A program made the translations under genes and the position numbers. A stretch of DNA of 54,773 nt from assembly GCA_016839815.1 (NCBI GenBank), contig JAEOTM010000196.1:1-54773 (forward strand), written 5' to 3'. This DNA is from Candidatus Hodarchaeota archaeon (GTDB lineage: Archaea > Asgardarchaeota > Heimdallarchaeia > Hodarchaeales > Hodarchaeaceae). This document shows, piece after piece, positions 18,773-40,351 of this stretch. Within the stretch, counting starts at the first letter, position 1, and every line of letters begins with the position of its first letter. The notes beneath the pieces are model-generated. The model saw only the letters and a list, made by a program, of their open reading frames with translations. It had not been told where the DNA came from and ran no database searches.

Positions 18773-18854
18773 AATTATCTCAAGAAATCTTAAACATTAA
18801 CAGGTATATTTCGATTTTAGATACAAATATCCGCAAGATCTTTGAGAATACGTA

Positions 18855-19787: not shown

Positions 19788-19801
19788 TTTTGTTATAGCT
19801 C

Positions 19802-20608: not shown

Positions 20609-20638
20609 GGTTTCGACCTCTTATCGCGAATTTTATTG

Positions 20639-21583
20639 TTATTTTAAAATTTCTAAAATTTCTGTGGTAATATCGAGACAACTTTCTTGTACTCTGGGAT
20701 ATGATTCTTCATCATACTTAAAAACTGATTCCCTTCCAATCAAGATAATTTTGTTCTCTGCATTGATCCGTTTTGTTATCATAACAAAATCTTCGATCCG
20801 AATAATGTCGGCTTGATATTTTGGTCCGAGATCAAAGACGTGAAATTGAGCTAGCATACGAATTATTTGTGGTCCAACATTTGTTTCCCATCCCTCACTT
20901 TTTCCTGAAGCAATTAAGATATCCTGATTATGTCCAATTAGATATGCTCCTGAAAATCCACAGTCGTTCATTTTACTCTCAAGAATTTTTTTGATCTTTT
21001 TTAATTGACGATCACTTGGCTTTTTTATACTTGAATCTCGGTTATTCTTCATTTTCTTGCTATGTTCTACAGCTTTGTTCACGATCTGAGTAAAAACAAG
21101 ATTGGTCATTCTCTGTTGATCTGAACCTTTAAGAGAGACAATGTAAGATGTTATTTCTTGCGGAATAAGTTGTTGGAGATGACTTTCAACATTTTTCTGT
21201 ATTTTAGTTCTTTCTAGATCATTTGGGATTAGATGGCCCCTATTAACTAACAGTATTACCTGAAAATCCTTGTTTACCTCACTGATATCAAAATAAATTT
21301 CTTTAAAATCATTTGTAAGATCATCTATGACTTGATAGGAGATATCATGGACATAGATTAAAGTATTGATTTTTAAATACAATTTTTCTCTCATTGCAGG
21401 TAATATTTGCTTAAAATAAGACTCGTCCTCCTCTTTAAAAGGTCGATTTAACCAATCATAATAAATGAGATTTTCCCGAATTTTCATTCCAGGTTCTGAG
21501 CGTCCTAATTTTAAAAGCTGACTAAAAAGTAAATCCTTCCCAGAGTGTGACAGACCAGCTAATACGATTAGGTTTTGTTGCAA
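20639..21583 (-). CDS. Degenerate Rag-like GTPase with C-terminal roadblock-like domain (start moved to TTG 21583)
   Basis: G1 GLSHSGKD, no DxxG, NRGH at the G4 position; GAGGT upstream of TTG 21583, and this start removes the overlap with the upstream gene. Confidence 0.7.
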   Translation of the reverse strand: MQQNLIVLAGLSHSGKDLLFSQLLKLGRSEPGMKIRENLIYYDWLNRPFKEEDESYFKQILPAMREKLYLKINTLIYVHDISYQVIDDLTNDFKEIYFDISEVNKDFQVILLVNRGHLIPNDLERTKIQKNVESHLQQLIPQEITSYIVSLKGSDQQRMTNLVFTQIVNKAVEHSKKMKNNRDSSIKKPSDRQLKKIKKILESKMNDCGFSGAYLIGHNQDILIASGKSEGWETNVGPQIIRMLAQFHVFDLGPKYQADIIRIEDFVMITKRINAENKIILIGRESVFKYDEESYPRVQESCLDITTEILEILK

Positions 21584-21593
21584 AGCGGTACCT

Positions 21594-22598
21594 CTAGATG
21601 GGGATTTTAAGCATACTTTCAAGTTGATGAGTAAGCAGACGAATAGTCTCTTCAATTTCTGACAATTTTCTTGTTTCCAACATTGATTTCTCATCAGAGG
21701 AGACTAAGAGAATTAAATAATGAGGGGGAACAGATGCTTTAAATAACATAATCTGTCCAATTTTCATTAATTCAGATTTTGAACTTGGAATTAACCATAG
21801 ATCTTTTGATTTATCAAGAATCGTAATAAATTGTTGAATTTCATTGATATTTGTCTCTGATGCACTTATTATAAAATCTGGTTCTACTGTAGAAAGCAGT
21901 AATACTTCATCCAACCGATTCATAAATTTTAATGCATGTAGCACTTGCTGAATAGGCCGCATCCGTAAACGTCGTTGGATAGCTTCTAAATCTTCTTCTT
22001 TTTCCACCACAGATGCTTCTGGAATGATTTCACTGGCTTCAGCTGTTATTCGCTTAAAAGCCTCATGAATTGAATTATCGTATATTGAGGTTTGAAGAAA
22101 TGTAATGTTTTTGGTTTCAACTGCAGTTTGGAACATTTCCATAAGGAATTCCATACGTTCTGCCCTTTGAGTGAGGTCTGGCATTAAATCAGTTTTATGT
22201 AATAGTATATATACTGCAGGTTGGACATCTGACATCTCTTCTAACCGATTAGTGCCTTCGACGAACGCTTTAAGTGAAGCTGGGAACTTGTCTGGTGTGG
22301 AAATATCACAGATGAAAACCAAAACTGCGACATTACTAAAGATGAATGAACTCATACTACTAAGAAAACGTTTCAAGAATACTTCCTGTCCTCCAAGGTC
22401 CATTACAGTGATAGGTTCATCAGCAACTTGTTCTACTTGACGTTCATAGTTCAACGTAGCAGCATAATCAGCAGTTTCTTCTGGAGATTTGCCTCCGAAG
22501 ACAACATCTCGAATAGAAGTTTTTCCTGCCTGAGAAAGACCTAAAAGAATGATTTTCCGAGTACTTTGGGTCTTTAGTTGCTTAAGATAATGACTCAT
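21594..22598 (-). CDS. Rag/Gtr-like small GTPase with C-terminal roadblock-like domain
   Basis: GLSQAGKTSIRDVVF, DLGGQEVF, IFSNVAVLVFICD, HKTD, TSIYDNSIHEAF are all Rag-like. Confidence 0.88.
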   Translation of the reverse strand: MSHYLKQLKTQSTRKIILLGLSQAGKTSIRDVVFGGKSPEETADYAATLNYERQVEQVADEPITVMDLGGQEVFLKRFLSSMSSFIFSNVAVLVFICDISTPDKFPASLKAFVEGTNRLEEMSDVQPAVYILLHKTDLMPDLTQRAERMEFLMEMFQTAVETKNITFLQTSIYDNSIHEAFKRITAEASEIIPEASVVEKEEDLEAIQRRLRMRPIQQVLHALKFMNRLDEVLLLSTVEPDFIISASETNINEIQQFITILDKSKDLWLIPSSKSELMKIGQIMLFKASVPPHYLILLVSSDEKSMLETRKLSEIEETIRLLTHQLESMLKIPI

Positions 22599-26016: not shown

Positions 26017-26928
26017 ATGAGAAATATGAAAATCTCTCTAGTCGGTCTTAGCGGTTGTGGAAAAACGTCTATCTACTCAACTACATTTGGAGGAATGACT
26101 CCTTTAGAAGTTAAAGATCTTGGCCCTACAGTTATGTATGAAGTCAAAAGTCATAATTATCTTGGGATACAAGTTTCGTTGTGGGATTTTGGAGGTCAAG
26201 AGAAATATCGCCAAAGCTATTTGGAGACACCTAAGTTACTCGCAAATACATCAATTTTAGTTTTCGTTCTTGATCTTCATCATCCAGAAAACTTTGATTT
26301 GGCGAACGAGTACTTTGACAATGTCTATTCAGCGATTAAAGAGCAAGGCGGAGATCCTCGAATAAAAATCTTCTACCACAAATATGATACAGAGGAGTAC
26401 ACACAAGAAGCTCTTGACGAAAATCTTGCTAAGGCCAAAGAGCTCCCTTTTATTGTGAAATATACTCCTCGCGAATTTTTGACTTCAGTATATCGCCAGG
26501 AAGAGCTCAGTGAATTTCTGAAACAAATCCTAATCGCTGACTTTGAAGAGCTAAAGAAGAGCGTTGAAGGTGCACAGGAATTTTTATCAAAATTGAATTC
26601 TAAGATCATAATTACTGATGTTAATGGAAACGTGATTACACATAATATTGAAGGATTTGCTACTGGGATCCAACTCCGTGAGGATCTCAGAGAATATATT
26701 TTCGCCTGTAATGTCTTACGTGAAAACTTTCTCACTTCAGAATCTGCTTCTTTCTCTGCAAGTTCGGAAGTTAAGAAATTGAAGGTATATATCTATAATT
26801 ATGTTCTAACAGTATTAATAATGATGGATGAACAGGGGCCAGCTGATCCACCAGAATCTCTTAACGAGCTGTTAAAAGAGATGGAAATATTTGCAGAATT
26901 ACTTGTTGAGATGAGTAGTGAAGAATAA
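26017..26928 (+). CDS. Rag/Gtr-like small GTPase with C-terminal roadblock-like domain
   Basis: GLSGCGKTS, GPTV, WDFGGQEKY, HKYD, TSVY; C-terminal IIITDVNGNVI is roadblock-like. Confidence 0.85.
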   Translation: MRNMKISLVGLSGCGKTSIYSTTFGGMTPLEVKDLGPTVMYEVKSHNYLGIQVSLWDFGGQEKYRQSYLETPKLLANTSILVFVLDLHHPENFDLANEYFDNVYSAIKEQGGDPRIKIFYHKYDTEEYTQEALDENLAKAKELPFIVKYTPREFLTSVYRQEELSEFLKQILIADFEELKKSVEGAQEFLSKLNSKIIITDVNGNVITHNIEGFATGIQLREDLREYIFACNVLRENFLTSESASFSASSEVKKLKVYIYNYVLTVLIMMDEQGPADPPESLNELLKEMEIFAELLVEMSSEE

Positions 26929-27143
26929 TCAGATAATTACTCATAGAGAATTATAAATTTAAGAATTCATTGATTTACTATTGTTTTCTAAGTCAGATCA
27001 GAATAAATTATATATACCTCATCCATATCAATGGTTTCCATTGTTTCCAGTTACATTTAGCACCATCTATCCAGAAAACTACATCTTAATTATATTGTCA
27101 GTGGGAAATAACACAAATTAAACAATATTGGAGACGTTCATAA

Positions 27144-27641
27144 GTGGTTACAGCAGAAGCTATAGATTCGACATTTCACGAGATACTGAACTCAAGGGAG
27201 AAAGAGAGAAAGCACCTGATTCCGATTTTGCAGGATGTGCAGAAGGAATATGGGTATTTGTCAAAGGAAAATATGTTTAGAATCAGTGAATATCTTGAAA
27301 TGTCACCAAATGAAGTATATGGGGTCGCTTCTTTCTATCAACAGTTTAAATTTATCAAACCTGGAAAACATACCATATCAGTATGTTTAGGCACCGCATG
27401 TTTCGTTAAAGGTGGAAATATTCTTGCAGAAACGGTTAAAACAAAATTAGGAATCGAACCAGGTGAAACTACTGAAGATGGATTATTTAGTTTTGAAAGA
27501 GTTGCATGTCTGGGCTGTTGTGCACTTTCTCCTGTGGTACAGATCGATGACGAAATTTATGGCCAAGTAAAGCCTTCAAAATTACTTCGTCTTATTAATC
27601 GGATGATTAAGAAGGAGAATCCTACGGAGGTACCTAAATGA
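27144..27641 (+). CDS. nuoE: NuoE/HydC-like [2Fe-2S] subunit
   Basis: LIPILQDVQ, VASFY, VCLGTAC, ACLGCCALSP. Confidence 0.9.
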   Translation: MVTAEAIDSTFHEILNSREKERKHLIPILQDVQKEYGYLSKENMFRISEYLEMSPNEVYGVASFYQQFKFIKPGKHTISVCLGTACFVKGGNILAETVKTKLGIEPGETTEDGLFSFERVACLGCCALSPVVQIDDEIYGQVKPSKLLRLINRMIKKENPTEVPK

Positions 27642-29476
27642 CACAAGTAGAATCACTACCTCGTTATTCTCAAAAGACAGTTCTAATATGTAAAGGAACT
27701 GGGTGCGTTTCAACTAAATCAGAAGAAATAAGTAAGGAGTTTGAGGAGCAGCTATTGAACTTTAACCTTCAGGATAAAATTAAGGTAGATTTCACGGGTT
27801 GCCATGGATTTTGTGCTCAGGGGCCTATAGTAATTGTTGAACCTGAAGGCATTATGTATGCTCAGGTTAAGACTCCAGACGTAACAAAGATCGTTAGTTC
27901 ACACCTCAAGGATGGAACTCCAGTCGAAGAGCTTTTTTTCACAGATCCAAAATTAAACAAACGCATTGCTAAGTATTCTGAAATTGATTTTTATAGTAAG
28001 CAAACTAGAATGATTTTGGGGAATTGTGGACATATTAATCCTGAAAACATCGATGCTTATATTGAAACAGGTGGCTATACAGGATTAAAAAAAGCCTTAG
28101 AGAAAACTCCAGAGGAAATCATCCAAATAATCAAAGATTCAGGGCTGAGAGGAAGAGGTGGTGCTGGTTTTTCGACTGGAATGAAATGGCAATTCTGTCA
28201 TGATGCTCCAGGGAGTCAAAAATACATAATATGTAATGCAGATGAAGGAGATCCTGGTGCATTTATGGATCGCTCCCTACTTGAAGCTGATCCCCATAGT
28301 GTATTAGAGGGGATGATTATTGGGGCATTTGCTATTGGTGCATCTCATGGAATTATTTATGTTCGTGCAGAATACCCTCTTGCAATCAAACGATTTAGTC
28401 GTGCCCTTGAAACTGCAAGAGAACGGGGATTTCTAGGAGAAAACATATTGAATTCAGGTTTTTCACTAGATGTTTCTGTGCATGAGGGTGCAGGAGCATT
28501 CGTCTGTGGAGAAGAAACAGCGTTAATGGCTTCTATCGAAGGAAATCGTGGTAATCCACGAACAAGACCTCCCTATCCAGCAACATCTGGGCTCTGGGGG
28601 AAACCTACGAATATTAATAATGTTAAAACATGGGCCTCTGCTTCATGGATATTTAAAAATGGATGGGAAAAATTCCATGAAATAGGAGTTGAAAACGCCA
28701 CAGGTACAGCAATTTTTTCATTAACTGGGAAAGTAAAAAACTTAGGTTTAATTGAAGTTCCTATGGGGACTCCTTTGAAAGACATTGTATTTGAAATTGG
28801 AGGTGGAATCCTTGATGATAGAGAATTCAAGGCCGTACAAACAGGTGGCCCCTCTGGAGGTTGTTTACCACCAAGTCACTTGGATTCTCCTGTTGATTAC
28901 GAAACTATGGCCGCTTCAGGAAGTATTATGGGTTCAGGAGGTATGATAGTTCTTGATGAAACCAATTGTATGGTGAAGCTAGCTCATTATTTCTTAACAT
29001 TTACACAAGCTGAATCTTGTGGAAAATGTATTCCATGTAGAATTGGTACAAGGGCTATGCTATTAATCTTAGAGAAGATTATTACAGGAAAAGGGGAAGA
29101 TAAGGATCTTATGCTCCTAGAAGAGCTTGCATATACTGTAAAAATGGGTTCTCTTTGTGCCTTAGGTCAAACTGCTCCAAATCCAGTATTAACAACACTC
29201 AAGTATTTCCGTAATGAATACCAATCTCATATTTTTGAAAAACGATGTAATTCTAAAGATTGTCAGGATCTAATTAACTATGTTATAGATGAAGAGTTTT
29301 GCAATGGATGTACAACCTGTGCACGCAATTGTCCCGTCAATGCAATTACAGGAGATAAGGGACAAGTCCACTTCATTGATATAGCAATCTGTGTTAAATG
29401 TGGTATTTGTCACTCAAGCTGTCCTAAAAATGCCATCTTTAAAGAAGATAGGCCATATGAGGTGGTGTCACAATGA
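27638..29476 (+). CDS. nuoF: NuoF/HydB-like FMN/NADH subunit with N-terminal thioredoxin-like FeS domain and C-terminal 2x[4Fe-4S]
   Basis: SGLRGRGGAGF, CNADEGDPGAFMDR, GEETAL, ESCGKCIPCR, CNGCTTC...CVKCGIC; architecture typical of bifurcating HydB. Confidence 0.92.
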   Translation: MTQVESLPRYSQKTVLICKGTGCVSTKSEEISKEFEEQLLNFNLQDKIKVDFTGCHGFCAQGPIVIVEPEGIMYAQVKTPDVTKIVSSHLKDGTPVEELFFTDPKLNKRIAKYSEIDFYSKQTRMILGNCGHINPENIDAYIETGGYTGLKKALEKTPEEIIQIIKDSGLRGRGGAGFSTGMKWQFCHDAPGSQKYIICNADEGDPGAFMDRSLLEADPHSVLEGMIIGAFAIGASHGIIYVRAEYPLAIKRFSRALETARERGFLGENILNSGFSLDVSVHEGAGAFVCGEETALMASIEGNRGNPRTRPPYPATSGLWGKPTNINNVKTWASASWIFKNGWEKFHEIGVENATGTAIFSLTGKVKNLGLIEVPMGTPLKDIVFEIGGGILDDREFKAVQTGGPSGGCLPPSHLDSPVDYETMAASGSIMGSGGMIVLDETNCMVKLAHYFLTFTQAESCGKCIPCRIGTRAMLLILEKIITGKGEDKDLMLLEELAYTVKMGSLCALGQTAPNPVLTTLKYFRNEYQSHIFEKRCNSKDCQDLINYVIDEEFCNGCTTCARNCPVNAITGDKGQVHFIDIAICVKCGICHSSCPKNAIFKEDRPYEVVSQ

Positions 29477-31083
29477 ATAAATGGATGAATATTAATGGGA
29501 GACGAGTTGTGTACGAAGAAGGTGAAACTGTACTTGAAGTTGCCACCAAAGCGGGAATTTACATCCCAACACTCTGTGCTAGGCCTGATCTCCCTTCATT
29601 TGGTGCCTGCAGACTTTGTATTATTGATGTAGAAGGAGCTCGTACCTATCCTAATTCCTGTACTCTACCAGCCAGAGAGGGTATGGTTGTAAGAACAGCA
29701 ACTCCAGATCTCCAAGCTGTTCGTCGAAATATATTCCAGTTAATCCTAGCGGAACATCCGAGCTATTGCATTATCTGTAAGGAACACGATGAGTGTGAAA
29801 AAGTCCGGCATGGTGAATATAAAGCTGGACGAGTTATTGGTTGTTTTACCTGTAGTAACAAAGAAATTTGTGAAATTCGTGAAATTTCTGAATATCTGAG
29901 GATAAAAGAAATTCGCTATCCAATGTTATACAAAAATATCCCCTTAGAACGTAATGATCCCTTCCTTGTGAGAGATTATAACCTTTGTATCCTGTGTGCA
30001 CGATGTGTACGTGCATGTCATGATGTTTTGGGATATAGTGCAATTGATTTGACAAAACGTGGACATGATACAAAGATAGGAACTATTCTAGAAGTTTCCC
30101 ATTTAGAAAGTGGATGTGTTTTTTGTGGTCATTGTATTGATGTATGCCCAACAGGTGCTCTCATCGCTCGTGGTTCAACATGGTTTGGTACTCCTGATAA
30201 ATCGGTCACGACTACTTGCAACCTTTGCTCACATGGCTGTCAAATGGTGATTGATGTAAAGTGGGAAAAAGTAGTAAATGTTCATCCTCCGTATGAGCTC
30301 TCAGCTCGACGTGAATACTGCGTAAAAGGACGATTCTGTATCCCGGCGTTATTAAATGGTCGTGATCGACTTAAATACCCAACTATCAAGCGAAAGATGA
30401 TAAAAGAGGAACATCATCCAGTTTCTTGGGATGAAGCAATCTCCCATACTGGCAGTCAATTGAAAAAATATAAACCCGAGGAAATTGGAGTAATCATTTC
30501 TCCCTCGTTAACTGATGAATCAGTATTTATGTTAACAAAGTTTGCTCAAAAAATCAGCGCCAACCCTCTCGTGTTTGAAGAGGAAGGTATCAGTCGTTTA
30601 CATTCTCAAGGAGTAAAAGCATTCGTGTCCACCTTTAGTTCACCCTTGTTTTCTAGACTTGAAGGATTAGAATTAGTCGTACTTCAAGATATTTACGAAT
30701 CACCAACTTCGGAATCTGCTGACGTTGTCTTACCCACGACAGTATTTACTGAGGAGAATGGGACGAAATCAGGGGAAGAATATATGAAATTCAACATCAA
30801 TAAAGCTGTAGAACCTCCAGGTGAAGCCATTCCTAGTTGGAGAATAATTATGCAAATAGCTCAGGCAATGGAGCTAGACGGTTTCAATTATAATACGATA
30901 GATGAACTACAGGACGAAATTATGAGTTCTAAACTCATAGAAATACCAAAAGTTCCAAAACAAAGTTTACAGTATATGGGAATACCTATTGCGGACAAAG
31001 TAGAGGAATTTCGACTATACATAACGACTAAACAGGCTATCAACCAATCGAATGGAAAAGGTGAAATCGATGTCCAAATTTAA
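29473..31083 (+). CDS. NuoG/HydA-N-like FeS subunit with truncated molybdopterin-oxidoreductase domain
   Basis: IPTLC, GACRLC, HPSYCIIC, CILCARC, CVFCGHC, CNLCSHGC...CVKG, ADVVLP; no H-cluster motifs; only 536 aa. Confidence 0.85.
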   Translation: MNKWMNINGRRVVYEEGETVLEVATKAGIYIPTLCARPDLPSFGACRLCIIDVEGARTYPNSCTLPAREGMVVRTATPDLQAVRRNIFQLILAEHPSYCIICKEHDECEKVRHGEYKAGRVIGCFTCSNKEICEIREISEYLRIKEIRYPMLYKNIPLERNDPFLVRDYNLCILCARCVRACHDVLGYSAIDLTKRGHDTKIGTILEVSHLESGCVFCGHCIDVCPTGALIARGSTWFGTPDKSVTTTCNLCSHGCQMVIDVKWEKVVNVHPPYELSARREYCVKGRFCIPALLNGRDRLKYPTIKRKMIKEEHHPVSWDEAISHTGSQLKKYKPEEIGVIISPSLTDESVFMLTKFAQKISANPLVFEEEGISRLHSQGVKAFVSTFSSPLFSRLEGLELVVLQDIYESPTSESADVVLPTTVFTEENGTKSGEEYMKFNINKAVEPPGEAIPSWRIIMQIAQAMELDGFNYNTIDELQDEIMSSKLIEIPKVPKQSLQYMGIPIADKVEEFRLYITTKQAINQSNGKGEIDVQI

Positions 31084-31960
31084 AATTTTAAATAAAGAAG
31101 AATTTGTACCAAATTTTTACAAACTAGAAATCATAGTTCCTGGGATTGCAAAAAAAGCAAAAGCAGGTCAATTTATTTTAGTGATGGTTGATGAGCATTC
31201 AGAGAAAATTCCTTTAACTTTGCTTGATTGGGACAAAGAGAAAGGAACAATTTCCTTCATTGTCCAAGAACTGGGATTATCTACTTCAAAGATGGCTTTC
31301 ATGGAAGAGGGCGACTCTTTCTATAGTATTGTTGGTCCGCTTGGAGAACCAGCATATTTGGATAACTTTGGTACAGTTGTATTAGGAGGAGGATGTTATG
31401 GGGTAGGTGCGGTTTTTCCCATTGCAAAAGAGCTAAAAGCACTTGGTAATTACGTTATAACCATAATTGAAGCCAAAAATGAAAATCTTCTGTACTACGA
31501 GGAAGAGTATAGAACAGTGAGTGATGAGGTAATTCTTGTCACTACTGACGGATCTAAAGGTGAGCGAGGACACATTTATGATGTTCTTGACAATATGATT
31601 GAGGTTCAAAATCGAAAGATCGATCATATTAAGGTAATTGGCTGTAATGTTATGATGAGTAAAGTTTCGAAGCTTACAAAAGAGAAAGGTGCTATTCCAA
31701 CTTATGCGACAGTTACCACAATAATGGTGGATGGAACAGGTATGTGTGGGAGTTGTCGTTTGTCATATGATGGAAAAACAAAGTTTGCGTGTGTGGATGG
31801 ACCAGAATTTGATGCCCATAAAATAGATTGGGAAGAATTAATACAAGTCCGTAACACATCCTATATTACAGATGAAACACTGGGCTTACAGAACTTTTCT
31901 CCCGAATGTCGATCTTTAGCTAAATTTCAGGAAAGAATAAAGGAAGAAGAAGCATCATGA
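31070..31960 (+). CDS. nfnA: NfnA/SudB small subunit of Nfn-type transhydrogenase (start ATG 31070)
   Basis: AGQF, EKIPLT, GPLG, MVDGTGMCGSCR, ACVDGPEFD; GGTGA upstream. Confidence 0.88.
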   Translation: MSKFKILNKEEFVPNFYKLEIIVPGIAKKAKAGQFILVMVDEHSEKIPLTLLDWDKEKGTISFIVQELGLSTSKMAFMEEGDSFYSIVGPLGEPAYLDNFGTVVLGGGCYGVGAVFPIAKELKALGNYVITIIEAKNENLLYYEEEYRTVSDEVILVTTDGSKGERGHIYDVLDNMIEVQNRKIDHIKVIGCNVMMSKVSKLTKEKGAIPTYATVTTIMVDGTGMCGSCRLSYDGKTKFACVDGPEFDAHKIDWEELIQVRNTSYITDETLGLQNFSPECRSLAKFQERIKEEEAS

Positions 31961-33690
31961 AATCTAAAGAGCGAATGCAAATTCCTTTTACAGATATGCC
32001 TACTCAACCTCCTCAGGTTCGGGCTAAAAATTTTCGTGAAGTTCCCTATGGTTATACTGAAGAGATGGCAATCCAAGAAGCAAATCGTTGTTTGAATTGT
32101 AAAAAACCAAAATGTGTAGAAGGATGTCCTGTTCGTGTTCCTATTCCCGAATTTATTTCTTTAGTACAGGAAGGTAAGTTTTTAGAGGCTGCATGGACAA
32201 TTAAAGAGAAGAATGTTCTACCTGCAGTTTGTGGCCGAGTTTGTCCTCAAGAAAGCCAATGTGAAGAAAAATGTATACGAAGTAAGAAAGGACGATCAGT
32301 AGGAATCGGTAATCTTGAGAGATTTGTAGCCGACTATGAAAGACTTAGTGGAAATATTCCAGAACCTACACGTGTGAGGAAAAATGGAAAAAAAGTCGCA
32401 ATTGTTGGGAGTGGCCCTTCGGGACTCACTACTGCTGGAGATTTAATACAACAGGGGTATGAAGTAACAGTCTATGAGGCTTTTCATCTCGGTGGGGGAG
32501 TTCTGGTATATGGTATCCCTGAGTTTAGATTGCCAAAATCAGTTGTTCAATATGAAATTCAGAATCTGGAGAATGCTGGGGTTAAATTTGTCTATGATTC
32601 CGTTATCGGGAGAATTAGAGGAATTGACGAATTGCTTTCCGAAGATGGGTATGATGCAGTTTATCTTGGAGTAGGAGCAGGTTTACCTGTATTTATGAAC
32701 ATACCAGGAGAAAATCTACAAGGAGTCTATTCAGCAAACGAATATTTAACACGTTCAAATCTCATGAAGGCATATCTTTTTCCTGATTATAACACGCCTA
32801 TCTTGACAGGAAAAAATGTTGTTGTTGTTGGGGGTGGAAATGTTGCAATGGACTCTGCAAGGACAGCATTGAGATTAGATGCTGATAATGTATATATTGT
32901 ATATCGTAGGTCAAGAGAGCAGATGCCTGCTAGATTAGAAGAAGTTCATCACGCAGAAGAGGAGGGAGTGCAATTTAAACTATTATCCAATCCAGTAGAA
33001 ATAATGGGTGACGAAAAAGGTCGAATTGAATCAATCAGATGTCAAAGATACCAGCTAGGTGAGCCTGATAAATCAGGTCGTGCCAGACCCGTTCCGATCG
33101 ATGGTGATTATTTTGTGCTAAATACAGATTTAATAATCATTGCGATAGGTAATAAAGCCAATCCCCTAATTACAATGACCACACCGGATTTAGAAGTTAA
33201 TAAGTGGGGAAATATTGTAACAGATGAATTAGGAAGGACAAGTAAACCATTTGTGTATGCTGGTGGGGATATAGTGACTGGTGCTGCTACTGTGATTTCA
33301 GCAATGGGTGCTGGTAGACGTGCTGCTACAGCTATTCATGAAGATCTCTTTCCCCCAACTGAGGAGCCTTCTGAGACCCTTAGTGTTCCTAAAGTTGCGT
33401 TAGAATTAAAACGCGCAACAATCTATCCTAATACTGTTTATTTAAGGCTTAATATTGTGAATTCATCTGAAAAAGAACTGGATCAGGTAAAAATACGAAT
33501 ATCACATGTTCATGAGTTCTTTGAAACAACCATGTTTGAGAAAACGATTCCACGCTGGTCTCCTGCTGAAGAACAAGAAATTGATTGTCCTCGTATAGAC
33601 CAAAACGAAAAAGAATATCTTCTTACAATAAATGATCTTCATGGTAAGATTCTATCAAAAATCATTATTGCTGAAGATGTTAAAAAATAA
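31957..33690 (+). CDS. nfnB: NfnB/SudA (GltD-like) large subunit with an extra ~110-aa C-terminal extension
   Basis: RCLNCKKPKCVEGCP, GRVCPQESQC, GSGPSG, YGIPEFRLP, GGGNVAMD, GGDIVTGAATVI; extension follows AIHEDLFPP. Confidence 0.9.
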   Translation: MKSKERMQIPFTDMPTQPPQVRAKNFREVPYGYTEEMAIQEANRCLNCKKPKCVEGCPVRVPIPEFISLVQEGKFLEAAWTIKEKNVLPAVCGRVCPQESQCEEKCIRSKKGRSVGIGNLERFVADYERLSGNIPEPTRVRKNGKKVAIVGSGPSGLTTAGDLIQQGYEVTVYEAFHLGGGVLVYGIPEFRLPKSVVQYEIQNLENAGVKFVYDSVIGRIRGIDELLSEDGYDAVYLGVGAGLPVFMNIPGENLQGVYSANEYLTRSNLMKAYLFPDYNTPILTGKNVVVVGGGNVAMDSARTALRLDADNVYIVYRRSREQMPARLEEVHHAEEEGVQFKLLSNPVEIMGDEKGRIESIRCQRYQLGEPDKSGRARPVPIDGDYFVLNTDLIIIAIGNKANPLITMTTPDLEVNKWGNIVTDELGRTSKPFVYAGGDIVTGAATVISAMGAGRRAATAIHEDLFPPTEEPSETLSVPKVALELKRATIYPNTVYLRLNIVNSSEKELDQVKIRISHVHEFFETTMFEKTIPRWSPAEEQEIDCPRIDQNEKEYLLTINDLHGKILSKIIIAEDVKK

Positions 33691-33699
33691 ATACCGAGT

Positions 33700-34098
33700 T
33701 TACCTTAGTTCAAGCGTATTGAATGCTGCGATAATGTCATGTGTGGTAATTATACCCACTAAATCATGAGTAGTCGGATCTTTTACTGGGATTCGTTTAA
33801 TCTTTTTTCGGTACATTGTAACAAGGGCATGTTCGATAGTATCATTCGGTGCGATTGTTATTAAACCCTTGGTTGCAATTTCCCTTGTTTGTACTTCACA
33901 CAAGTCTCTACAGTCGGTAATGACCTTTCGTACAATATCACGTTCTGTGATAATTCCAATAACAGTAGAATCTTCGTAGACTAAGACTGAACCAATATTT
34001 TTTTCCATCATTAATTCGGATGCATAAATTACGCTTTTATCACCACTGACAGTTATTAAACCTCTAGTCATTAAGTCTTTAACCTTTGTTACATTCAA
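33700..34098 (-). CDS. Stand-alone CBS-pair protein
   Basis: VKDLMT, IGSVLV, GIITERD, IKRIPV, GIITTHD. Confidence 0.9.
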   Translation of the reverse strand: MNVTKVKDLMTRGLITVSGDKSVIYASELMMEKNIGSVLVYEDSTVIGIITERDIVRKVITDCRDLCEVQTREIATKGLITIAPNDTIEHALVTMYRKKIKRIPVKDPTTHDLVGIITTHDIIAAFNTLELR

Positions 34099-34115
34099 TT
34101 TATATCCCCTTATCC

Positions 34116-35147
34116 TTAAATTCTCTTTATTTTCAAAGTTTCTTCTTCATCCTCAATTTTAAGTAAATATCGTATTCCGTCTTCCTTTTCAGGTGTGAAT
34201 TCAAATTTATTCACCTCATCTTGGTCCCATTGCTCAAATTTTCTTACCAACTTATCCTTTCCAAAAAAACCATGTGATTCATAAATACGGATAACGATAT
34301 TTTCTAAACTGAATGGAGATGTATTTTTCAATGAAATCGTTACTAATTCATCTCCCCGATTGATGGATACAATCTTGATTGTTTTCTGTTTTCCTCGTGC
34401 ATCTTCTTCATTAGTTTGACCAATAACCTTACCATCTTTACTTCTTGGGATGGCAAATCTTAATTTCTTTTTCGGGATTGTACTTACAGTAGAATCTTTA
34501 CTTCTATTAATTACAGTTTTTATTTTTCGTTTTTTTTCTTCCTGGAAAAATGGTTCAAGCTTGCTAAGGGGTGTATTTGGAGTTAATGATTGACAAATTT
34601 TAGTTAATTCTTCTTCGACTAACTTAACATTCTCTGGAGAGAAATCTTCACTTTCATTCCTTTTTGAAGATTCAAGCTGGTATCTCACAAGATAGCAGAG
34701 GTGAGTACTAAAATTCTCCTTTATTTGTTGATAAAATTCCTGTAAGATTTCCTGAGCAATAAAAGAGACTTCTGAAGGAGCTTTTACAATAAGAATGAAC
34801 CTCTCTTTTTGCCATTTCTTTGCTTTCATACCTGACCTTTGTTTCAGCCGTTGTGCATCACATTCGAAGAGAGTAGCTGAATATACTACACCACTAAGTT
34901 CAAGATCCATAGTAGAAAATTTTTCTGATTTAAGAAATTGTTCTTGATGCCACCATGCTGGATGAATTGCTAGAATGGCTATTTCATTTTCATTCGACAT
35001 GAGGATTTTTGGGTAAGTGAACAAGAGAGAATGACCCTGTAATTCATCATAAAAATAGATAAAAAAGCCAAAAGAGCGATCTTTAACCTGTAGATGAAAT
35101 GAATCAATAGGATTTGATTTCCCATTTGGCAAAGAAAAGGTCTCCAA
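34116..35147 (-). CDS. Longin/uDENN-like protein with C-terminal beta-rich domain (paralog B)
   Basis: FFIYFYDELQGHSLLFTYP N-terminal pattern; C-terminal domain shared with 35228-36196 and the NfnB tail. Confidence 0.65.
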   Translation of the reverse strand: METFSLPNGKSNPIDSFHLQVKDRSFGFFIYFYDELQGHSLLFTYPKILMSNENEIAILAIHPAWWHQEQFLKSEKFSTMDLELSGVVYSATLFECDAQRLKQRSGMKAKKWQKERFILIVKAPSEVSFIAQEILQEFYQQIKENFSTHLCYLVRYQLESSKRNESEDFSPENVKLVEEELTKICQSLTPNTPLSKLEPFFQEEKKRKIKTVINRSKDSTVSTIPKKKLRFAIPRSKDGKVIGQTNEEDARGKQKTIKIVSINRGDELVTISLKNTSPFSLENIVIRIYESHGFFGKDKLVRKFEQWDQDEVNKFEFTPEKEDGIRYLLKIEDEEETLKIKRI

Positions 35148-35227
35148 ATTTTTATGTAAATACCCAAATTCAAATTGATTAACTTTTCATTTCAAAATTT
35201 AGGATTTAATCTTTTCCTGTGGCTATT

Positions 35228-36196
35228 TTATAACTTTTTATCTGTAGGGACAATATCCAATGATTTAATTGCTATTGTTTGGTTTTTACTGGTAATTTTT
35301 ATCATATACCCTTCCAAATTTGTAGAGCGTGGGAATTCAAGAATTAAATCCTCTTTTAGAGGCCATTCCTCAAGATCTTGTTCCCATAAATTCTCACTGA
35401 AAAATTCTGTTTTCTTAGACACTTTAATTTTTACTTCTTCTAAGGTCTCTAATTGATTAACTAATATAACTAAAACTTCTTCACCACGTTCTTCGGTGTG
35501 CAAGATACGCATTGTAATTGGGTTTTTATATAAATTCTTTCTAGGAGACTCTTGTGAGAATGCGTGAATCGAAGATGATGAAATTGACAGATCTTGCGAG
35601 GCAAAAAATGGTTTAGTTTTAGATATCGTGTTACCTAGATTTTCCCACACAATAGTAAGGGCTTTTCCGATTTCATCTGCTTTACCTGTTAGTTCTAAGT
35701 ATTTGCGTCTTTTTGTGGGATTAAGTTTCAGGATTTGTCGTTTATACAGGAGTTCGATATCTGAGAGGTAGTTTTCTTGCAGATCGTCACGAAATTGGTC
35801 TAGGGAATCAGGATGAACAGAATCTCCATCTTTCCAAATCTTTAATACAATTCCAAATATGGGTTTTTCTACTGTGGTAGTCACATCTTGTTTATGGGAA
35901 TTTGAACCATGTAATTGAAGTGCAGAGTATACAAATTCAGAAATCTTGAGATCTATTCGCATAGGATTGTGTTCAACTTTCCAGATATAATGTGTTTTCA
36001 AAATATCATGTTCTTCAGAGCTTTTACGTAAATTTGTAGGGATAGAGTAAAGAATTTGGAGACCAAATGTTGTATCAAACGAACATAAATAAAATCCAAT
36101 CAAACTCGGAGAAAATGTATGAGACTTGGTTGTTTTTTCCAGCAATGTAGAATTCTTACTAAAAGGATCTAAATTCATTGTATTTGCTGCCATCAA
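35228..36196 (-). CDS. Longin/uDENN-like protein with C-terminal beta-rich domain (paralog A)
   Basis: GFYLCSFDTTFGLQILYSIP N-terminal pattern; IDLKISEFVYSA matches MDLELSGVVYSA in its neighbour. Confidence 0.65.
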   Translation of the reverse strand: MMAANTMNLDPFSKNSTLLEKTTKSHTFSPSLIGFYLCSFDTTFGLQILYSIPTNLRKSSEEHDILKTHYIWKVEHNPMRIDLKISEFVYSALQLHGSNSHKQDVTTTVEKPIFGIVLKIWKDGDSVHPDSLDQFRDDLQENYLSDIELLYKRQILKLNPTKRRKYLELTGKADEIGKALTIVWENLGNTISKTKPFFASQDLSISSSSIHAFSQESPRKNLYKNPITMRILHTEERGEEVLVILVNQLETLEEVKIKVSKKTEFFSENLWEQDLEEWPLKEDLILEFPRSTNLEGYMIKITSKNQTIAIKSLDIVPTDKKL

Positions 36197-36419
36197 GTGT
36201 TTGCATACAGAAAATTCAATCTGTCTGTTTGATTCTCTTCACGTTCTTTTTATGTTTCAACTAAAAAAATCTTAGTATATTCATGATTGTGAGGGAGAAT
36301 ATCAAATAAATACTTGATCATTAATCGCAATATTTGAACGACAATAACCTATATTCACTTAAATCGTAAAATTAAGACGAAATGTTTCATTAGATCAGGC
36401 ACAATCGGAGCAGAATCTG

Positions 36420-38252
36420 TTGGAATCAAAAATATGGGATGTCATATGCGTGGGAGGTGGCCCTGCCGGGCTTTCGTGTGCAATTCGGGCTGCAGAATTA
36501 GGAAGAAGTGTTCTTGTCCTTGAAGCTAGATCTGGATCGGCTACTGCAGGTAGTATGATGGTTGATGGTTATCCAGGTTTTTTTAGCATAACTCGTCAAG
36601 AATTACTGGATAAAATGGCCAGACAAGCGAAGTATCATGCTACAATCAGATATGCGGAGAAAGTAAGCCGACTAGAACTCGAAGGAAATATAAAACGGGT
36701 TTATTCAACGGTAGTACGGGGCGAATTTTTCTCTGAGGAGATTATGTACGAAGGTAAAACAGTATTAATTGCCACTGGATTACACCCGAAGAAACTTAAT
36801 GTTCCTGGAGAACGAAAATTCCGTTCTAAGGGAATTTATTATAATAATCCTCCAGAGGGGGAATATGAAGAAAAAAATGTTATCATCATTGGTCATAATT
36901 CATGGGCTGTTCGTAATGCTCTTCATTATGATTCAGTAGGAGCACATGTCAGCTTAATTACTGCTAGAAGCACCTTTGATGCTCATCCCGCCTTATTAAG
37001 AAGATTGAACGAGAGTTTTGTAGATATTCGTTTTGGACATGAAGTCATTTCATTTGAGGGTGAGTTAAAAGTTAAAAAAGTGAATTTGAAAAGTCCTGCA
37101 GGTGAGAAGGTTTCGATATTAACTGATATTGTAGTCATTCTAAGTAGTAAAATAAAAAATCGTGAATTATTCATGAATGCTGGCTTAGCCATTACACCTG
37201 AAGGAAAGATCATCATAAACTCAGCAAATCAGGATACTAATCTTTCTGGAGTATTTGCTGCGGGAAGTGCGATAAGAGGAGATTCTATTGTGGGTATTGA
37301 TGCAGCAGAAGGACAAACTGCGGCAATGCAGATTTCTCGACATCTTACCGATCTAGAAAAAGAAGAAAGTGTTTCACAACCAGAAAAATTAACGACTACA
37401 TTAGAACAAAGATTTGTTGAAGGTAAAAGTGTGATTTTGGAAAAGGTTGATCTCTCTACAGAAATAATCAAATGGGTCGTGGAGGCTCCTCGTATTGCAG
37501 AAAAATGTCAACCTGGACAATTTGTCATTATACGTATAAATGATTATGGTGAAAGAATTCCTCTAACAATTGCTGATTTTGATAGGGATGCAGGAACGAT
37601 TACCCTTATTTTTCAGAAAATAGGGAAGAGTACAAAACTAATGGGTAAATTAAAGACGGGAGATCATATTTTGAATTTACTCGGTCCGCTAGGTGCACCA
37701 GTGAAAATTGAAAAGTGGGGAACAGTTGCAGTATTAGGTGGAGGATGTGGAGTTGCACCTGTATTACCGAAAACAAAAGCGATGAGAGAAATTGGAAATT
37801 ATGTGGTAAGTATCATTTCCGCTCGAACAGGATCCCTCCTAATTTGCCAAGATGATATGAAAGAAGCCAGTGATGAATTACACATTGCTACAGATGACGG
37901 TACATTAGGTCACCACGGATTTGGACTGGATTTACTGCAAAAATTCATCAATGAAGGGAGAAAGTTCGATCATGTGGTAGCTGTAGGACCTATCCCTATG
38001 ATGAGGGCCGTTGTAAATTTCACAAAGAAGCATAATATTCCCACTATAGTGTCTTTAGCTCCCTTAATGGTGGATGGAACAGGAATGTGTGGAGCCTGTC
38101 GTGTTACTGTGGGGGGTAAAGTGAAGTTTGCATGTGTAGACGGACCAAACTTCGATGGATTAAAGGTTGATTTTGATGAATTAACTCTTCGGTCACGAGC
38201 ATATCGTTATGAGGAACGAATCTCACTAGAACATATGTCACGTACAAATTAA
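36420..38252 (+). CDS. Fusion of thioredoxin-reductase-like flavoprotein and NfnA/SudB
   Basis: GGGPAG, LIATG, GVFAAG (TrxB fold), then PGQF, ERIPLT, MVDGTGMCGACR, ACVDGP in one reading frame. Confidence 0.85.
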   Translation: MESKIWDVICVGGGPAGLSCAIRAAELGRSVLVLEARSGSATAGSMMVDGYPGFFSITRQELLDKMARQAKYHATIRYAEKVSRLELEGNIKRVYSTVVRGEFFSEEIMYEGKTVLIATGLHPKKLNVPGERKFRSKGIYYNNPPEGEYEEKNVIIIGHNSWAVRNALHYDSVGAHVSLITARSTFDAHPALLRRLNESFVDIRFGHEVISFEGELKVKKVNLKSPAGEKVSILTDIVVILSSKIKNRELFMNAGLAITPEGKIIINSANQDTNLSGVFAAGSAIRGDSIVGIDAAEGQTAAMQISRHLTDLEKEESVSQPEKLTTTLEQRFVEGKSVILEKVDLSTEIIKWVVEAPRIAEKCQPGQFVIIRINDYGERIPLTIADFDRDAGTITLIFQKIGKSTKLMGKLKTGDHILNLLGPLGAPVKIEKWGTVAVLGGGCGVAPVLPKTKAMREIGNYVVSIISARTGSLLICQDDMKEASDELHIATDDGTLGHHGFGLDLLQKFINEGRKFDHVVAVGPIPMMRAVVNFTKKHNIPTIVSLAPLMVDGTGMCGACRVTVGGKVKFACVDGPNFDGLKVDFDELTLRSRAYRYEERISLEHMSRTN

Positions 38253-38258
38253 GGAGTC

Positions 38259-39680
38259 TTGAACAATATGAGTGAAGAACGGGAAAAAAGAAAACAAAAA
38301 ATAAAGAAAAAACGTACCCACATGAGTGTTCAAGAATCTCGTGAGCGGATTCGTAATTTCAACGAGGTTGCTCTTGGGTACACTGCGGAAGAAGTTCTCG
38401 AGGAAGCATCACGCTGTTTGAAATGCAAGAAACCCCGGTGTGTAAAAGGCTGTCCTGTAAATGTTCAAATTCCTGAATTCATTGAAAAAATACTTGAGAA
38501 TGATATTAATGGCGCGAAAGATATTATTCTCTGTACTAATAGTCTTCCAGCTATAACAGGACGAGTATGTCCACAAGAAAACCAGTGTCAAGAATTTTGC
38601 ATTCATCCTAATGCAATTTCCATTGGTAATTTAGAACGATATGTAGCTGATAATGGACAGATTGGAGAAAGACAAACAAAAAGTGATCTTGGAACAAAAG
38701 TTGCAGTTATTGGTTCTGGCCCCTCAGGATTGACGTGTGCAGCTGAACTCGCAACATTAGGCCATAACGTGACTGTTTATGAAGCACTACACGAATACGG
38801 TGGTGTTCTTACTTATGGTATTCCAGAATTTCGGATGCCAAAATCCATTGTTAATGAAGAGATTGAATCTGTCATGGCTTTAGGGGTAAAATTTGAAAAA
38901 GATGTGCTTGTTGGGAGAACAATTACTGTAAATGAGCTTTTAGAGAAACATCAATGTAATGCAGTTTATGTTGCCTCAGGAGCAGGAACACCGAATTTTC
39001 TGGGAATTCCTGGAGAAAATTTCAATGGAGTTTTTTCTGCAAATGAATTTCTTACTCGAGTTAACCTATTGAAAGGATACCAATTTCCAGATTTCGATAC
39101 ACCAGTAACCATCGGGGAAAAAGTAGCTGTTATTGGAGCTGGGAATGTTGCTATGGATTGTGCTCGGACTTCTCTTCGGTTAGGTGCACGAGAGGTCGAT
39201 ATTATCTATCGTCGATCCGAAGGAGAAATACCAGCTCGTTTAGAAGAAATAATTCACGCTAAAGATGAGGGAGTCGTAATTGGAGAATTAACATCGCCCT
39301 TAGAGATAATCGGAGATAATAAAGGGAATGTGGTGGGTCTTAAATGCATGAAAATGGATCTAGGAGAGAAAGATGCCTCTGGTCGTAGAAGACCGATTCC
39401 AATTCCAGAAACAGAGTTTATTTTTCCTGTGGATACAGTGATTATTGCTATTGGTCAACGCCCTAATCAACTGATAGCTCAAACAACTGAAGGACTGGAG
39501 ATTACTAAGTGGGGGACGTTTGTTCATAATGAAGAAACTGGAGCAACAACACGGGAAAGAATTTTTTGTGGAGGAGATGTAGCAACAGGTGCAGCAACAG
39601 TGATACTTGCTATGGAGGCTGGACGAAAAGCAGCTAAAGCAATTCACGAAATGATTCTAGAGAAAGATCTACAAGGGTAG
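38259..39680 (+). CDS. nfnB: Second NfnB/SudA large subunit, no C-terminal extension (start may be ATG 38268)
   Basis: RCLKCKKPRCVKGCP, GRVCPQENQC, YGIPEFR, GAGNVAMD, GGDVATGAATVI. Confidence 0.9.
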   Translation: MNNMSEEREKRKQKIKKKRTHMSVQESRERIRNFNEVALGYTAEEVLEEASRCLKCKKPRCVKGCPVNVQIPEFIEKILENDINGAKDIILCTNSLPAITGRVCPQENQCQEFCIHPNAISIGNLERYVADNGQIGERQTKSDLGTKVAVIGSGPSGLTCAAELATLGHNVTVYEALHEYGGVLTYGIPEFRMPKSIVNEEIESVMALGVKFEKDVLVGRTITVNELLEKHQCNAVYVASGAGTPNFLGIPGENFNGVFSANEFLTRVNLLKGYQFPDFDTPVTIGEKVAVIGAGNVAMDCARTSLRLGAREVDIIYRRSEGEIPARLEEIIHAKDEGVVIGELTSPLEIIGDNKGNVVGLKCMKMDLGEKDASGRRRPIPIPETEFIFPVDTVIIAIGQRPNQLIAQTTEGLEITKWGTFVHNEETGATTRERIFCGGDVATGAATVILAMEAGRKAAKAIHEMILEKDLQG

Positions 39681-39853: not shown

Positions 39854-40351
39854 ATGAAAGAAAAATGGCAAGTTGTACCAAAAAGGGTGGGGAGAAGTAG
39901 AAAGATTCAAGTCCGCCAATTTGAACCTGAAGAGATATTTATTGAATTTGAATTACATGTAAATGATCCAGATTCCACTCAGGATGCTATAGACGAAGCA
40001 ACACAATTAGCTATTGCCTATCTTGATGCCGAAGAAAAACGATTACGCAAATCTCCTGAGTCCAAACCTCAAGTGAAATCACCTAAACAAAGTGTAAAGA
40101 AGGAATTTACAATACAAATCACAGATGAGGGGAAAAAATTAGGGAAATTCAATATTAACAGATCAAATGATGTTCAATTTGAAAATTTTGTCCATTTATG
40201 GCTTGAAATTGATAATGAAAAGATATATGTCGGATATCTTAGAAAAGATATTGGAGATTTTACAATAAAGGACAAAAATAAGAGTCTTCTAGAGAAGTAT
40301 GGTGTCCAAAGAGGAAAGCATTTTAGAATAATGCAAAAATTAAGTACCTAA
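39854..40351 (+). CDS. Hypothetical protein
   Basis: 165-aa ORF with GGTGA SD; two apparent domains joined by a Lys/Pro/Ser linker. Confidence 0.65.
   Translation: MKEKWQVVPKRVGRSRKIQVRQFEPEEIFIEFELHVNDPDSTQDAIDEATQLAIAYLDAEEKRLRKSPESKPQVKSPKQSVKKEFTIQITDEGKKLGKFNINRSNDVQFENFVHLWLEIDNEKIYVGYLRKDIGDFTIKDKNKSLLEKYGVQRGKHFRIMQKLST

Follow-up and report, generated by a model that had tools for sequence, protein, structure and literature searches.

A Rag-family GTPase gene of a Hodarchaeales archaeon in a gene set with longin, CBS, and Ig-like-tagged redox proteins that recurs across Asgard archaea

Results and discussion

The window analyzed here is a stretch of 54,773 nucleotides (nt) from Candidatus Hodarchaeota archaeon (Hodarchaeales; GenBank assembly GCA_016839815.1, contig JAEOTM010000196.1). 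Between positions 26017 and 39680 it carries a gene for a Rag/Gtr-family small GTPase, redox genes of the Nuo and Nfn types, genes for two longin-like proteins (hereafter LngA and LngB), and a gene for a CBS protein. Elsewhere in Asgard archaea, the corresponding gene set usually encodes an FrhB-like flavin/iron-sulfur (FeS) oxidoreductase and the GTPase together with three further proteins: one that is arrestin-like, an LngA-type longin, and a CBS protein. Three of the five, namely, the oxidoreductase, the longin, and the arrestin-like protein, share one private immunoglobulin (Ig)-like domain, hereafter cdom, at their C terminus. In the subclade studied here, the FrhB-like enzyme is replaced by NuoEFG–NfnAB, cdom is now on the subunit NfnB1, the longin is duplicated, and the arrestin-like protein is absent. 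A functional tie among the GTPase, the longins, the CBS protein, and the redox enzyme is well supported by the order of the Rag ortholog and the cdom oxidoreductase, by the linkage of LngA and CBS genes, and by gene fusions. Taking folds, paralogy, the shared domain, fusions, co-occurrence, and gene order together, we regard it as an evenly balanced proposition that the locus represents a module which is spread across Asgard archaea, is centered on a Rag-family GTPase, and acts by the mechanism proposed below.

Distribution and gene order across Asgard archaea

Phylum-wide searches covered 400 Asgard genomes, whose families are referred to by the labels of the search tool (f1 is the family of the present genome). 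cdom was found in 179 of the 400 genomes, and orthologs of the GTPase (E ≤ 1e-50) were found in 153, mostly one per genome; the orthologs are 49% identical over their full length between families. Both cdom and the Rag ortholog are present in ten families (f1, f13–f18, f20, f21, and f32), and both are absent from the rest except f9; neither was detected in the 62 other genomes of this class. The f9 family is the sole one with cdom but without the Rag ortholog (0 of 3 genomes); its FrhB-like cdom protein (L089:8735-10189, + strand) has no LngA nearby. A second copy of the Rag ortholog, distant from the module, was seen in one complete sister genome (L108:9749-10657, + strand; E 4e-136 to the profile), and no cdom protein is encoded within 10 kb of it.

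The GTPase gene directly follows the gene for a cdom-tagged oxidoreductase in eight families sampled, among which f13, f14, f15, f17, f20, and f21 are named. In the 16 genomes outside f1 that were listed in both searches, approximately 90 to 140 nt separate the cdom end of the oxidoreductase from the start of the Rag match downstream on the same strand, and local annotation of f20, the largest family, placed the cdom oxidoreductase directly upstream of Rag in 7 of 7 loci. Genes for LngA-type longins and CBS proteins are part of the cluster or neighbor it in seven families (f1, f13, f14, f15, f17, f21, and f32), and a CBS gene is likewise adjacent to LngA in seven families; at one f15 locus, LngA, CBS, oxidoreductase, Rag, and arrestin-like genes form a tight run on the same strand. 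A single f17 protein of 644 amino acids (L087:10780-12711, − strand) unites LngA, cdom, and four CBS motifs, the 641-residue representative P0079 has the same LngA–cdom–CBS fusion, and a truncated open reading frame (ORF) in f16 suggests that LngA and CBS are fused there too. Synteny across related genomes had been put forward in the initial annotation as a check on its proposal; the cdom oxidoreductase–Rag pair, accompanied by LngA and CBS genes in seven families, proved to be conserved well beyond Hodarchaeales.

A protein of approximately 390 amino acids with a cdom tail usually follows the Rag ortholog in other families and is absent from this genome. Locus annotation placed it at L085:5790-6968 (+ strand), L081:6070-7242, and L087:6865-8049. 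Its first ~290 residues are arrestin/Vps26-like, which is a lead only, drawn from an Atlas feature score of 0.85 to 0.87, a TM score of 0.45 to 0.65, and one weak Pfam match to Arrestin_C. The possibility that this protein is the equivalent of LngB was considered and rejected, as hhalign against LngB gave a weak match of the tail only. Further genes accompany the set in some families. In f14, the gene for a Peptidase_C25 protein separates LngA from the oxidoreductase gene (L081:10059-12080, − strand), and a V4R-domain protein follows the arrestin-like gene (L081:4593-5864, − strand). An FeS protein of approximately 450 amino acids and one or two FrhB-like paralogs that lack cdom are often encoded a few kb from the module on the opposite strand (L083, L084, L086, L087, L101, L104, L109, and L110).

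The C-terminal domain shared by the longins and the redox enzyme

cdom is an Ig-like domain of approximately 90 amino acids that forms the C terminus of LngA, LngB, and NfnB1. NfnB1 (P0075; 31957–33690, + strand; 577 amino acids) is an NfnB/GltD-like protein (TIGR01316, 597.7 bits over residues 18–463; cut-off, 471.75) that is ~100 residues longer than the NfnB of the second Nfn-like set of this locus. The excess is a tail, encoded at about 33409–33687 (+ strand), which matched the profiles of LngA (hhalign 94.8%, E 5e-8) and LngB (90.6%) as well as a local hidden Markov model (HMM) of cdom (E 2.7e-20). The HMM detected exactly three proteins in this genome, LngA, LngB, and NfnB1, all of which are encoded at this locus; no cdom was found in the second nfnAB set.

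A comparison within the family covered twenty loci of sister genomes and distinguished two locus types. Type A, comprising this window and eight other loci, has the GTPase–NuoEFG–NfnAB arrangement found here, and NuoEFG–NfnAB occurs in type A only. Type B, with eight loci, is without NuoEFG–NfnAB; here the CBS gene is followed by a gene for an FrhB/FdhB-like flavin/FeS protein of approximately 490 amino acids, whose C terminus is cdom and whose 3′ end abuts the 3′ end of the GTPase gene in convergent orientation. The HMM matched NfnB1 in 9 of 9 type A loci and the FrhB-like protein in 8 of 8 type B loci; the tag therefore stays with the position and not with the enzyme family. In a tree of cdom sequences, the NfnB1 tails of the type A loci form one clade (support, 100/99), and the tails of LngA and LngB group together, with the caveat of long branches. 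The mean identity of the NfnB1 tail to the FrhB-like tails (29%) is in slight excess of that to the longin tails (22–24%). On its 91 columns, the tree does not resolve the deep branches and points to no donor for the NfnB1 tail.

Fold and paralogy of LngA and LngB

LngA (34116–35147, − strand; 343 amino acids) and LngB (35228–36196, − strand; 322 amino acids) matched no Pfam family at E ≤ 0.01, and searches of PDB sequences with LngA, LngB, and a profile of the LngA family returned nothing usable. The two proteins are paralogous over their full length (BLASTP E 2e-8; hhalign 99.1%, E 1.5e-18). AlphaFold2 (AF2) models of moderate confidence were obtained for LngA (predicted local distance difference test [pLDDT], 68.7; 25 homologs) and LngB (pLDDT, 69.7; 29 homologs). 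Both models have an N-terminal β-β-α-β-β-β-α domain and a C-terminal β-sandwich, joined by a long helical hairpin and then a disordered linker. In LngA, the longin domain spans residues ~24–145 and the hairpin residues ~150–215, and cdom follows the linker at residues ~254–343; LngB has the same architecture.

When the LngB model was aligned to all 48,161 PDB representative chains, the top seven chains were all longin-domain proteins (Z 8.8–11.0), namely, a Lokiarchaeota Roadblock-Longin domain (8yqg_B, Z 11.0), a chimeric GATOR1 complex (8fw5_B, Z 10.4), the SEA complex (8adl_S, Z 10.2), the FLCN-FNIP2-Rag-Ragulator complex (6ulg_N, Z 9.8), the lysosomal folliculin complex (6nzd_H, Z 9.3), C9orf72-SMCR8 (7o2w_A, Z 9.0), and the Lst4 longin domain (4zy8_C, Z 8.8). 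The longins of TRAPP, VAMP7, and AP sigma scored lower (Z 7.3–7.9). The LngA model gave a like picture, with Z values of 9.1 to 9.8 to GATOR1/SEAC chains over 128 to 137 residues. We read these values as pointing to a longin fold with the best likeness to longins of the GTPase-activating protein (GAP) type, short of proof of homology. The assignment of both proteins as longins in the initial annotation thus holds at the level of the fold, through the AF2 topology and the longin chains at the top of the structure searches, and not from family libraries.

A search of 1.84 billion representative proteins with the LngA-family profile collected 83 clusters, mostly of 300 to 390 amino acids. Eight odd or weak clusters of the family were scanned and contained no NPR2, NPR3, or folliculin Pfam domain, and a protein atlas search with LngA returned Asgard clusters without names only. 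Extra, solo LngA paralogs were observed in two sister genomes (L040:6438-7502, L044:12506-13531, and L047:12479-13501); their neighbors encode an amine-oxidase-like flavoprotein, a HycI protease, MvhD/FlpD and FeS proteins, desulfoferrodoxin, and aconitase, and no GTPase was found near them within the 20 kb fetched.

A basic loop that distinguishes LngA from LngB

Fifteen LngA-type proteins from eight families were aligned and compared with LngB. A basic loop, R100-x-K102-x-R104-x-G106, is kept in 14 to 15 of the 15 LngA-type proteins, and LngB has no Arg at the position of this R-x-K-x-R-x-G loop. G38, L42, and P46 (around strands 1 and 2), H62, W65, and D81-L82-E83 are also conserved in the LngA type. 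LngB retains most of this framework, with K in place of E83; G38 is kept in all 15 LngA-type proteins and in LngB, the following residue being H, Q, or N in the LngA type and L in LngB. LngB appears to have lost the basic loop after duplication and LngA to have retained it.

Since a second, loop-less longin has been seen in this family only, the heterodimer-like pair probably arose by duplication within it. At one locus of another family, two LngA-type genes are adjacent. A joint complex prediction of the LngA longin, the LngB longin, and the G domain of the GTPase with GTP gave ipSAE values of 0.17 and 0.21 against a mark of 0.32, a result that bears on binding in neither direction.

The Rag-like GTPase and further Rag-like genes

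The GTPase (P0003; 26017–26928, + strand; 303 amino acids) passed the Pfam cut-off for Gtr1_RagA (75.3 bits; cut-off, 22) and consists of an N-terminal G domain and a conserved C-terminal domain of approximately 130 amino acids. A profile built from 15 orthologs matched PDB entries in the order 8yl2_A (E 8.9e-22), RagA (5.3e-17), Gtr1 (2.8e-15), RagC (2.3e-9), and Arf1 (7e-9), which places the G domain nearer to Rag/Gtr than to Arf. The match to 8yl2_A extends to residue 207, and the C-terminal ~130 residues have no Pfam model. In Rag/Gtr GTPases, two paralogs dimerize through a C-terminal roadblock domain; the orthogroup of P0003 mostly has a single gene per genome. GLSGCGKT, T38, DFGGQ, HKYD, and TS[IV] are invariant in the 15 orthologs, so that all nucleotide-binding motifs are intact; HKxD at G4 is typical of Rags.

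A co-directional cluster with three more Rag-like genes lies upstream at 18221–22598 (− strand). Two of these genes match Gtr1_RagA strongly (21594–22598, 119.6 bits; 18855–19787, 110.8 bits) and one weakly (20639–21694, 23 bits), and the cluster includes two ORFs without a Pfam family (19802–20608 and 18221–18772), all on the − strand. In sister genomes, tblastn gave weaker Rag-like matches (26–33% identity to P0003), repeatedly located upstream of the MFS gene and the tRNA-synthetase gene.

Organization of the locus

The GTPase gene is followed after 215 nt by NuoE-like (27144–27641, Pfam; NCBIfam above cut-off), NuoF-like (27638–29476, Pfam; NCBIfam 485.8, below the equivalog cut-off of 558.65), and truncated NuoG/molybdopterin-like genes (29473–31083, 536 amino acids; NCBIfam 226, below the equivalog cut-off of 470), and then by the first copy of the NfnA/SudB-like FAD/NAD(P) subunit (31052–31960; PRK06222, 329.8 bits, cut-off 220; Pfam DHODB_Fe-S_bind) and NfnB1. 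All are on the + strand, and the Nuo/Nfn genes run with overlapping starts and stops to 33690. On the opposite strand, LngB, LngA, and the gene for a stand-alone CBS-pair (Bateman) protein of 132 amino acids (33700–34098; Pfam CBS, 90.7 bits in two stretches corresponding to two tandem CBS motifs) form one unit, of which CBS is the last gene. LngB and LngA are separated by 80 nt, or by 95 nt if the start of LngA is the TTG at 35132, where its homologs begin in the alignment, and LngA and CBS are separated by 17 nt. The stop codons of CBS and NfnB1 converge 9 nt apart, and LngB and the second nfnA diverge with 223 nt between them. The initial annotation had described a Rag-like GTPase gene directly upstream of nuoEFG–nfnAB and a same-strand longin–longin–CBS unit between two nfnAB sets, divergent from the second; all of these genes were found where it had placed them. 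A promoter and terminator scan, which used bacterial consensus sequences, found sites no commoner than in shuffled sequence.

Proposed mechanism and alternative explanations

What follows on binding, on a longin heterodimer with GAP activity, on ligands, and on the direction of signaling is inferred. cdom would dock the oxidoreductase subunit and the longins into one assembly, either to one another or on the GTPase. LngA and LngB may then form an asymmetric longin dimer, like those of GATOR1 and FLCN; the dimer would control which nucleotide the Rag-like GTPase holds, a GAP role through the R-x-K-x-R loop being the most likely. The CBS protein, by binding an adenylate or similar ligand, and the redox enzyme, through the state of NAD(P)H or ferredoxin, would modulate the activity of the longins. 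The coupling of redox and adenylate status to GTPase switching suggested in the initial annotation survives in part. The functional tie stands on gene order, fusions, and cdom; a general role for Nuo/Nfn, the inclusion of the second nfnAB set, and a conserved longin pair are not supported. The conserved redox partner is the FrhB-like flavin/FeS protein and not the putatively bifurcating Nuo/Nfn enzymes, NuoEFG–NfnAB being present in one subclade of the family only; the second nfnAB set has no cdom and is a neighbor within this family only; and LngB is seen in this family only.

Several observations weigh against the proposed mechanism. The fold Z values of 9 to 11 are only moderately above the background of 7 to 8 stated for the tool, no Pfam or PDB sequence match ties LngA or LngB to NPRL2, FLCN, or a named longin, and the profile search of 1.84 billion proteins with LngA reached no named eukaryotic family. 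GAP-type longins (NPRL2, FLCN, SMCR8, and C9orf72) have a GP motif in the loop before strand 2 (PMC12290439); this signature is absent here, where the residues are G-H in LngA and G-L in LngB. The basic loop of LngA is only a candidate counterpart of the catalytic Arg of NPRL2 and FLCN. In f20, LngA is 12 to 65 kb from the GTPase gene on the same contig in 15 of 16 genomes compared and ~790 kb away in one, and therefore lies outside the operon there. The synteny within the family also includes a class-I tRNA synthetase (TrpRS/TyrRS-type), a major facilitator superfamily (MFS) transporter, Memo, and PfkB; because such housekeeping genes are syntenic too, synteny within the family says little on function by itself and was rejected as functional evidence. 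In addition, the three further Rag-like genes of the window (18855–22598) could be the true clients of the longins.

The main rival to the proposed mechanism reverses the signal: the GTPase, the longins, and, in other families, the arrestin-like protein would regulate, assemble, or localize the cdom oxidoreductase, so that they control the enzyme instead of reporting on it and the output is the activity or placement of the enzyme. This would fit the position of the oxidoreductase as the most constant neighbor of the GTPase, directly upstream in eight families, the role of cdom as a mark of set membership that was kept when the enzyme was swapped, and the presence of solo LngA paralogs by redox genes as well (MvhD/FlpD, HycI protease, and desulfoferrodoxin). 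However, the metalloenzyme maturation GTPases HypB, UreG, and CooC are of a GTPase class other than Rag, and a CBS sensor and a GAP-like basic loop equally fit a switch that reads metabolites. On balance, we consider a reversed signal possible but somewhat improbable.

In its literal form, the initial annotation had the bifurcating NuoEFG–NfnAB and the second NfnAB report NAD(P)H and ferredoxin to the longin pair, which in turn would switch the adjacent GTPase. The genes are contiguous, and the presence of the cdom-bearing NfnB1 in all type A loci, with tails in a single clade, is consistent with such a role. Nevertheless, eight sister genomes have the FrhB-like enzyme instead, Nuo/Nfn genes are never in the cluster of other families, the second nfnAB is without cdom, and bifurcation is putative for this enzyme. 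We therefore hold this version to be unlikely.

A third explanation is that LngA and LngB are exchange factors or scaffolds, or serve another GTPase such as those of the 18221–22598 cluster, and that the GTPase at 26017 is not their client. Most longin/DENN modules are exchange factors or scaffolds. Mon1-Ccz1, TRAPP, and DENN longin folds also appear in the match lists (Z 7.3–7.9), the GP motif is not kept, and the three additional Rag-like genes lie 3.4 to 7.2 kb upstream. On the other side, the GTPase that accompanies cdom proteins from family to family is the ortholog of the 26017 type (profile E 1e-99 to 1e-116) and none of the other Rag-like genes (~1e-15), and the upstream cluster has candidate accessory proteins of its own, which makes a different client or activity quite unlikely in our view. 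Finally, that the genes have no functional link, their order being kept by descent and cdom being a generic Ig-like appendage, is disfavored and very improbable: unrelated housekeeping genes are indeed syntenic within the family and Ig-like folds are common, but cdom occurs in this genome in exactly three proteins, all of this locus, the linkage survives rearrangements, enzyme replacement, and strand changes across eight to ten families, LngA–CBS fusions exist, and the phyletic patterns coincide.

Relation to known systems

GATOR1 NPRL2-NPRL3 (Npr2-Npr3 of yeast SEACIT) is the GAP for RagA/B (Gtr1), and FLCN-FNIP (yeast Lst7-Lst4) is the GAP for RagC/D (Gtr2). LngA and LngB resemble GATOR1 in being two paralogous longins of which only one has a conserved basic/Arg element, in having chains of GATOR1/SEAC entries among their best structural matches (Z 9.1–10.4 over 128–142 residues), and in having a Rag-family GTPase as genomic partner. 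They differ from it in that they have no relationship to its longins at the sequence level, end in a helical hairpin and an Ig-like cdom instead of the C-terminal domains of NPRL2/3, carry G-H or G-L instead of G-P before strand 2, are not accompanied by DEPDC5 here, and are encoded with a CBS protein and a redox enzyme. FLCN-FNIP and C9orf72-SMCR8 are likewise longin heterodimers with one catalytic subunit, and chains of their entries are among the top seven matches of LngB (Z 8.8–9.8); by contrast with FLCN/FNIP and other DENN-type proteins, the longin of LngA and LngB is followed by a hairpin, a linker, and an Ig-like sandwich, with no DENN domain and no sequence match.

As in AMPK gamma and other Bateman modules, a CBS pair is encoded with, or fused to, the regulator that it presumably controls, but the CBS protein here is a stand-alone protein of 132 amino acids and not a kinase subunit. 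The bacterial MglA-MglB system is similar in that a prokaryotic small GTPase gene lies beside the gene for a regulator whose fold is of the roadblock/longin class. That regulator, MglB, forms a roadblock homodimer and lacks an Arg finger; the system serves in polarity control, with neither a redox enzyme nor a CBS protein as partner.

Rag GTPases and longin-domain GAPs form the core of amino acid sensing in eukaryotes, where they act upstream of TORC1. Many Rag-like GTPases and longins are also present in Asgard archaea, whose cells have neither lysosomes nor TOR; published work describes their genes as rarely linked, which hides the pairing of regulator and GTPase and the signal that such switches sense. 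Asgard longin/roadblock proteins and Rag-like GTPases have already been described (Tran et al. 2024, PMC10933270; Liu et al. 2020 preprint, 10.1101/2020.10.19.343400; Traffic 2025, PMC12290439). The proteins in those papers come from the same organisms and belong to the same classes as ours, and the best structural match found here, 8yqg, is a Lokiarchaeota Roadblock-Longin protein. Heimdallarchaeia are reported to encode longins of the NPRL2-like and FLCN-like types that carry an Arg finger. For strain MK-D1, small GTPase genes are stated to lie generally outside operons with longin/roadblock genes; most such Asgard genes are said to be unlinked and without conserved neighborhoods, and their clients to be unreadable from the genome, and the question of which GTPases the GAP-like longins serve was raised in the same work (PMC10933270; 10.1101/2020.10.19.343400; PMC12290439). 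The 15 Asgard longins of PMC12290439 may include the present family. The operon given in those papers encodes a DENN protein, a LAMTOR1-like protein, and a Rab-like GTPase, whereas the GTPase here is a Rag. The literature searched contained no description of the cdom tag, the oxidoreductase–Rag gene pair, the LngA–CBS fusion, or the module.

The module names a concrete set of partners: a single GTPase orthogroup, a single family of longins whose basic loop is a candidate for catalysis, a CBS protein, and a redox enzyme that bears the tag. This set offers a candidate archaeal counterpart of the nutrient-sensing switch of eukaryotes that is open to testing. If the coupling is true, the Rag switch would ancestrally have responded to redox or energy state and not to amino acids. 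Tentatively, and with more doubt than confidence, we suggest a Rag switch with a GATOR1/FLCN-like longin and a CBS protein, docked via the Ig-like tag to a flavin/FeS oxidoreductase, as a redox- or energy-sensing forerunner of the eukaryotic Rag pathway, whose asymmetric heterodimer would have arisen independently in Hodarchaeales in parallel to NPRL2-NPRL3 and FLCN-FNIP.

The second Nfn-like set and adjacent genes

The second Nfn-like set (+ strand) consists of a TrxR-like domain fused to NfnA (36420–38252) and a second NfnB without cdom (38259–39680), both identified by Pfam and NCBIfam. Both Nfn gene pairs of the locus, each with a small FAD/[2Fe-2S] subunit and a GltD-like large subunit, scored above the cut-offs of PRK06222 and TIGR01316. 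The second set adjoins the module in every locus of this family that reaches that far and was not found beside the module in other families. Its TrxR-like N-terminal domain matched TIGR01292 with 150 bits, which is below the cut-off, and the fusion is kept in all sister loci. An ORF of 165 amino acids without a Pfam or NCBIfam family (39854–40351, + strand) follows and, in sister genomes, always lies between the second NfnB and Memo (54–78% identity).

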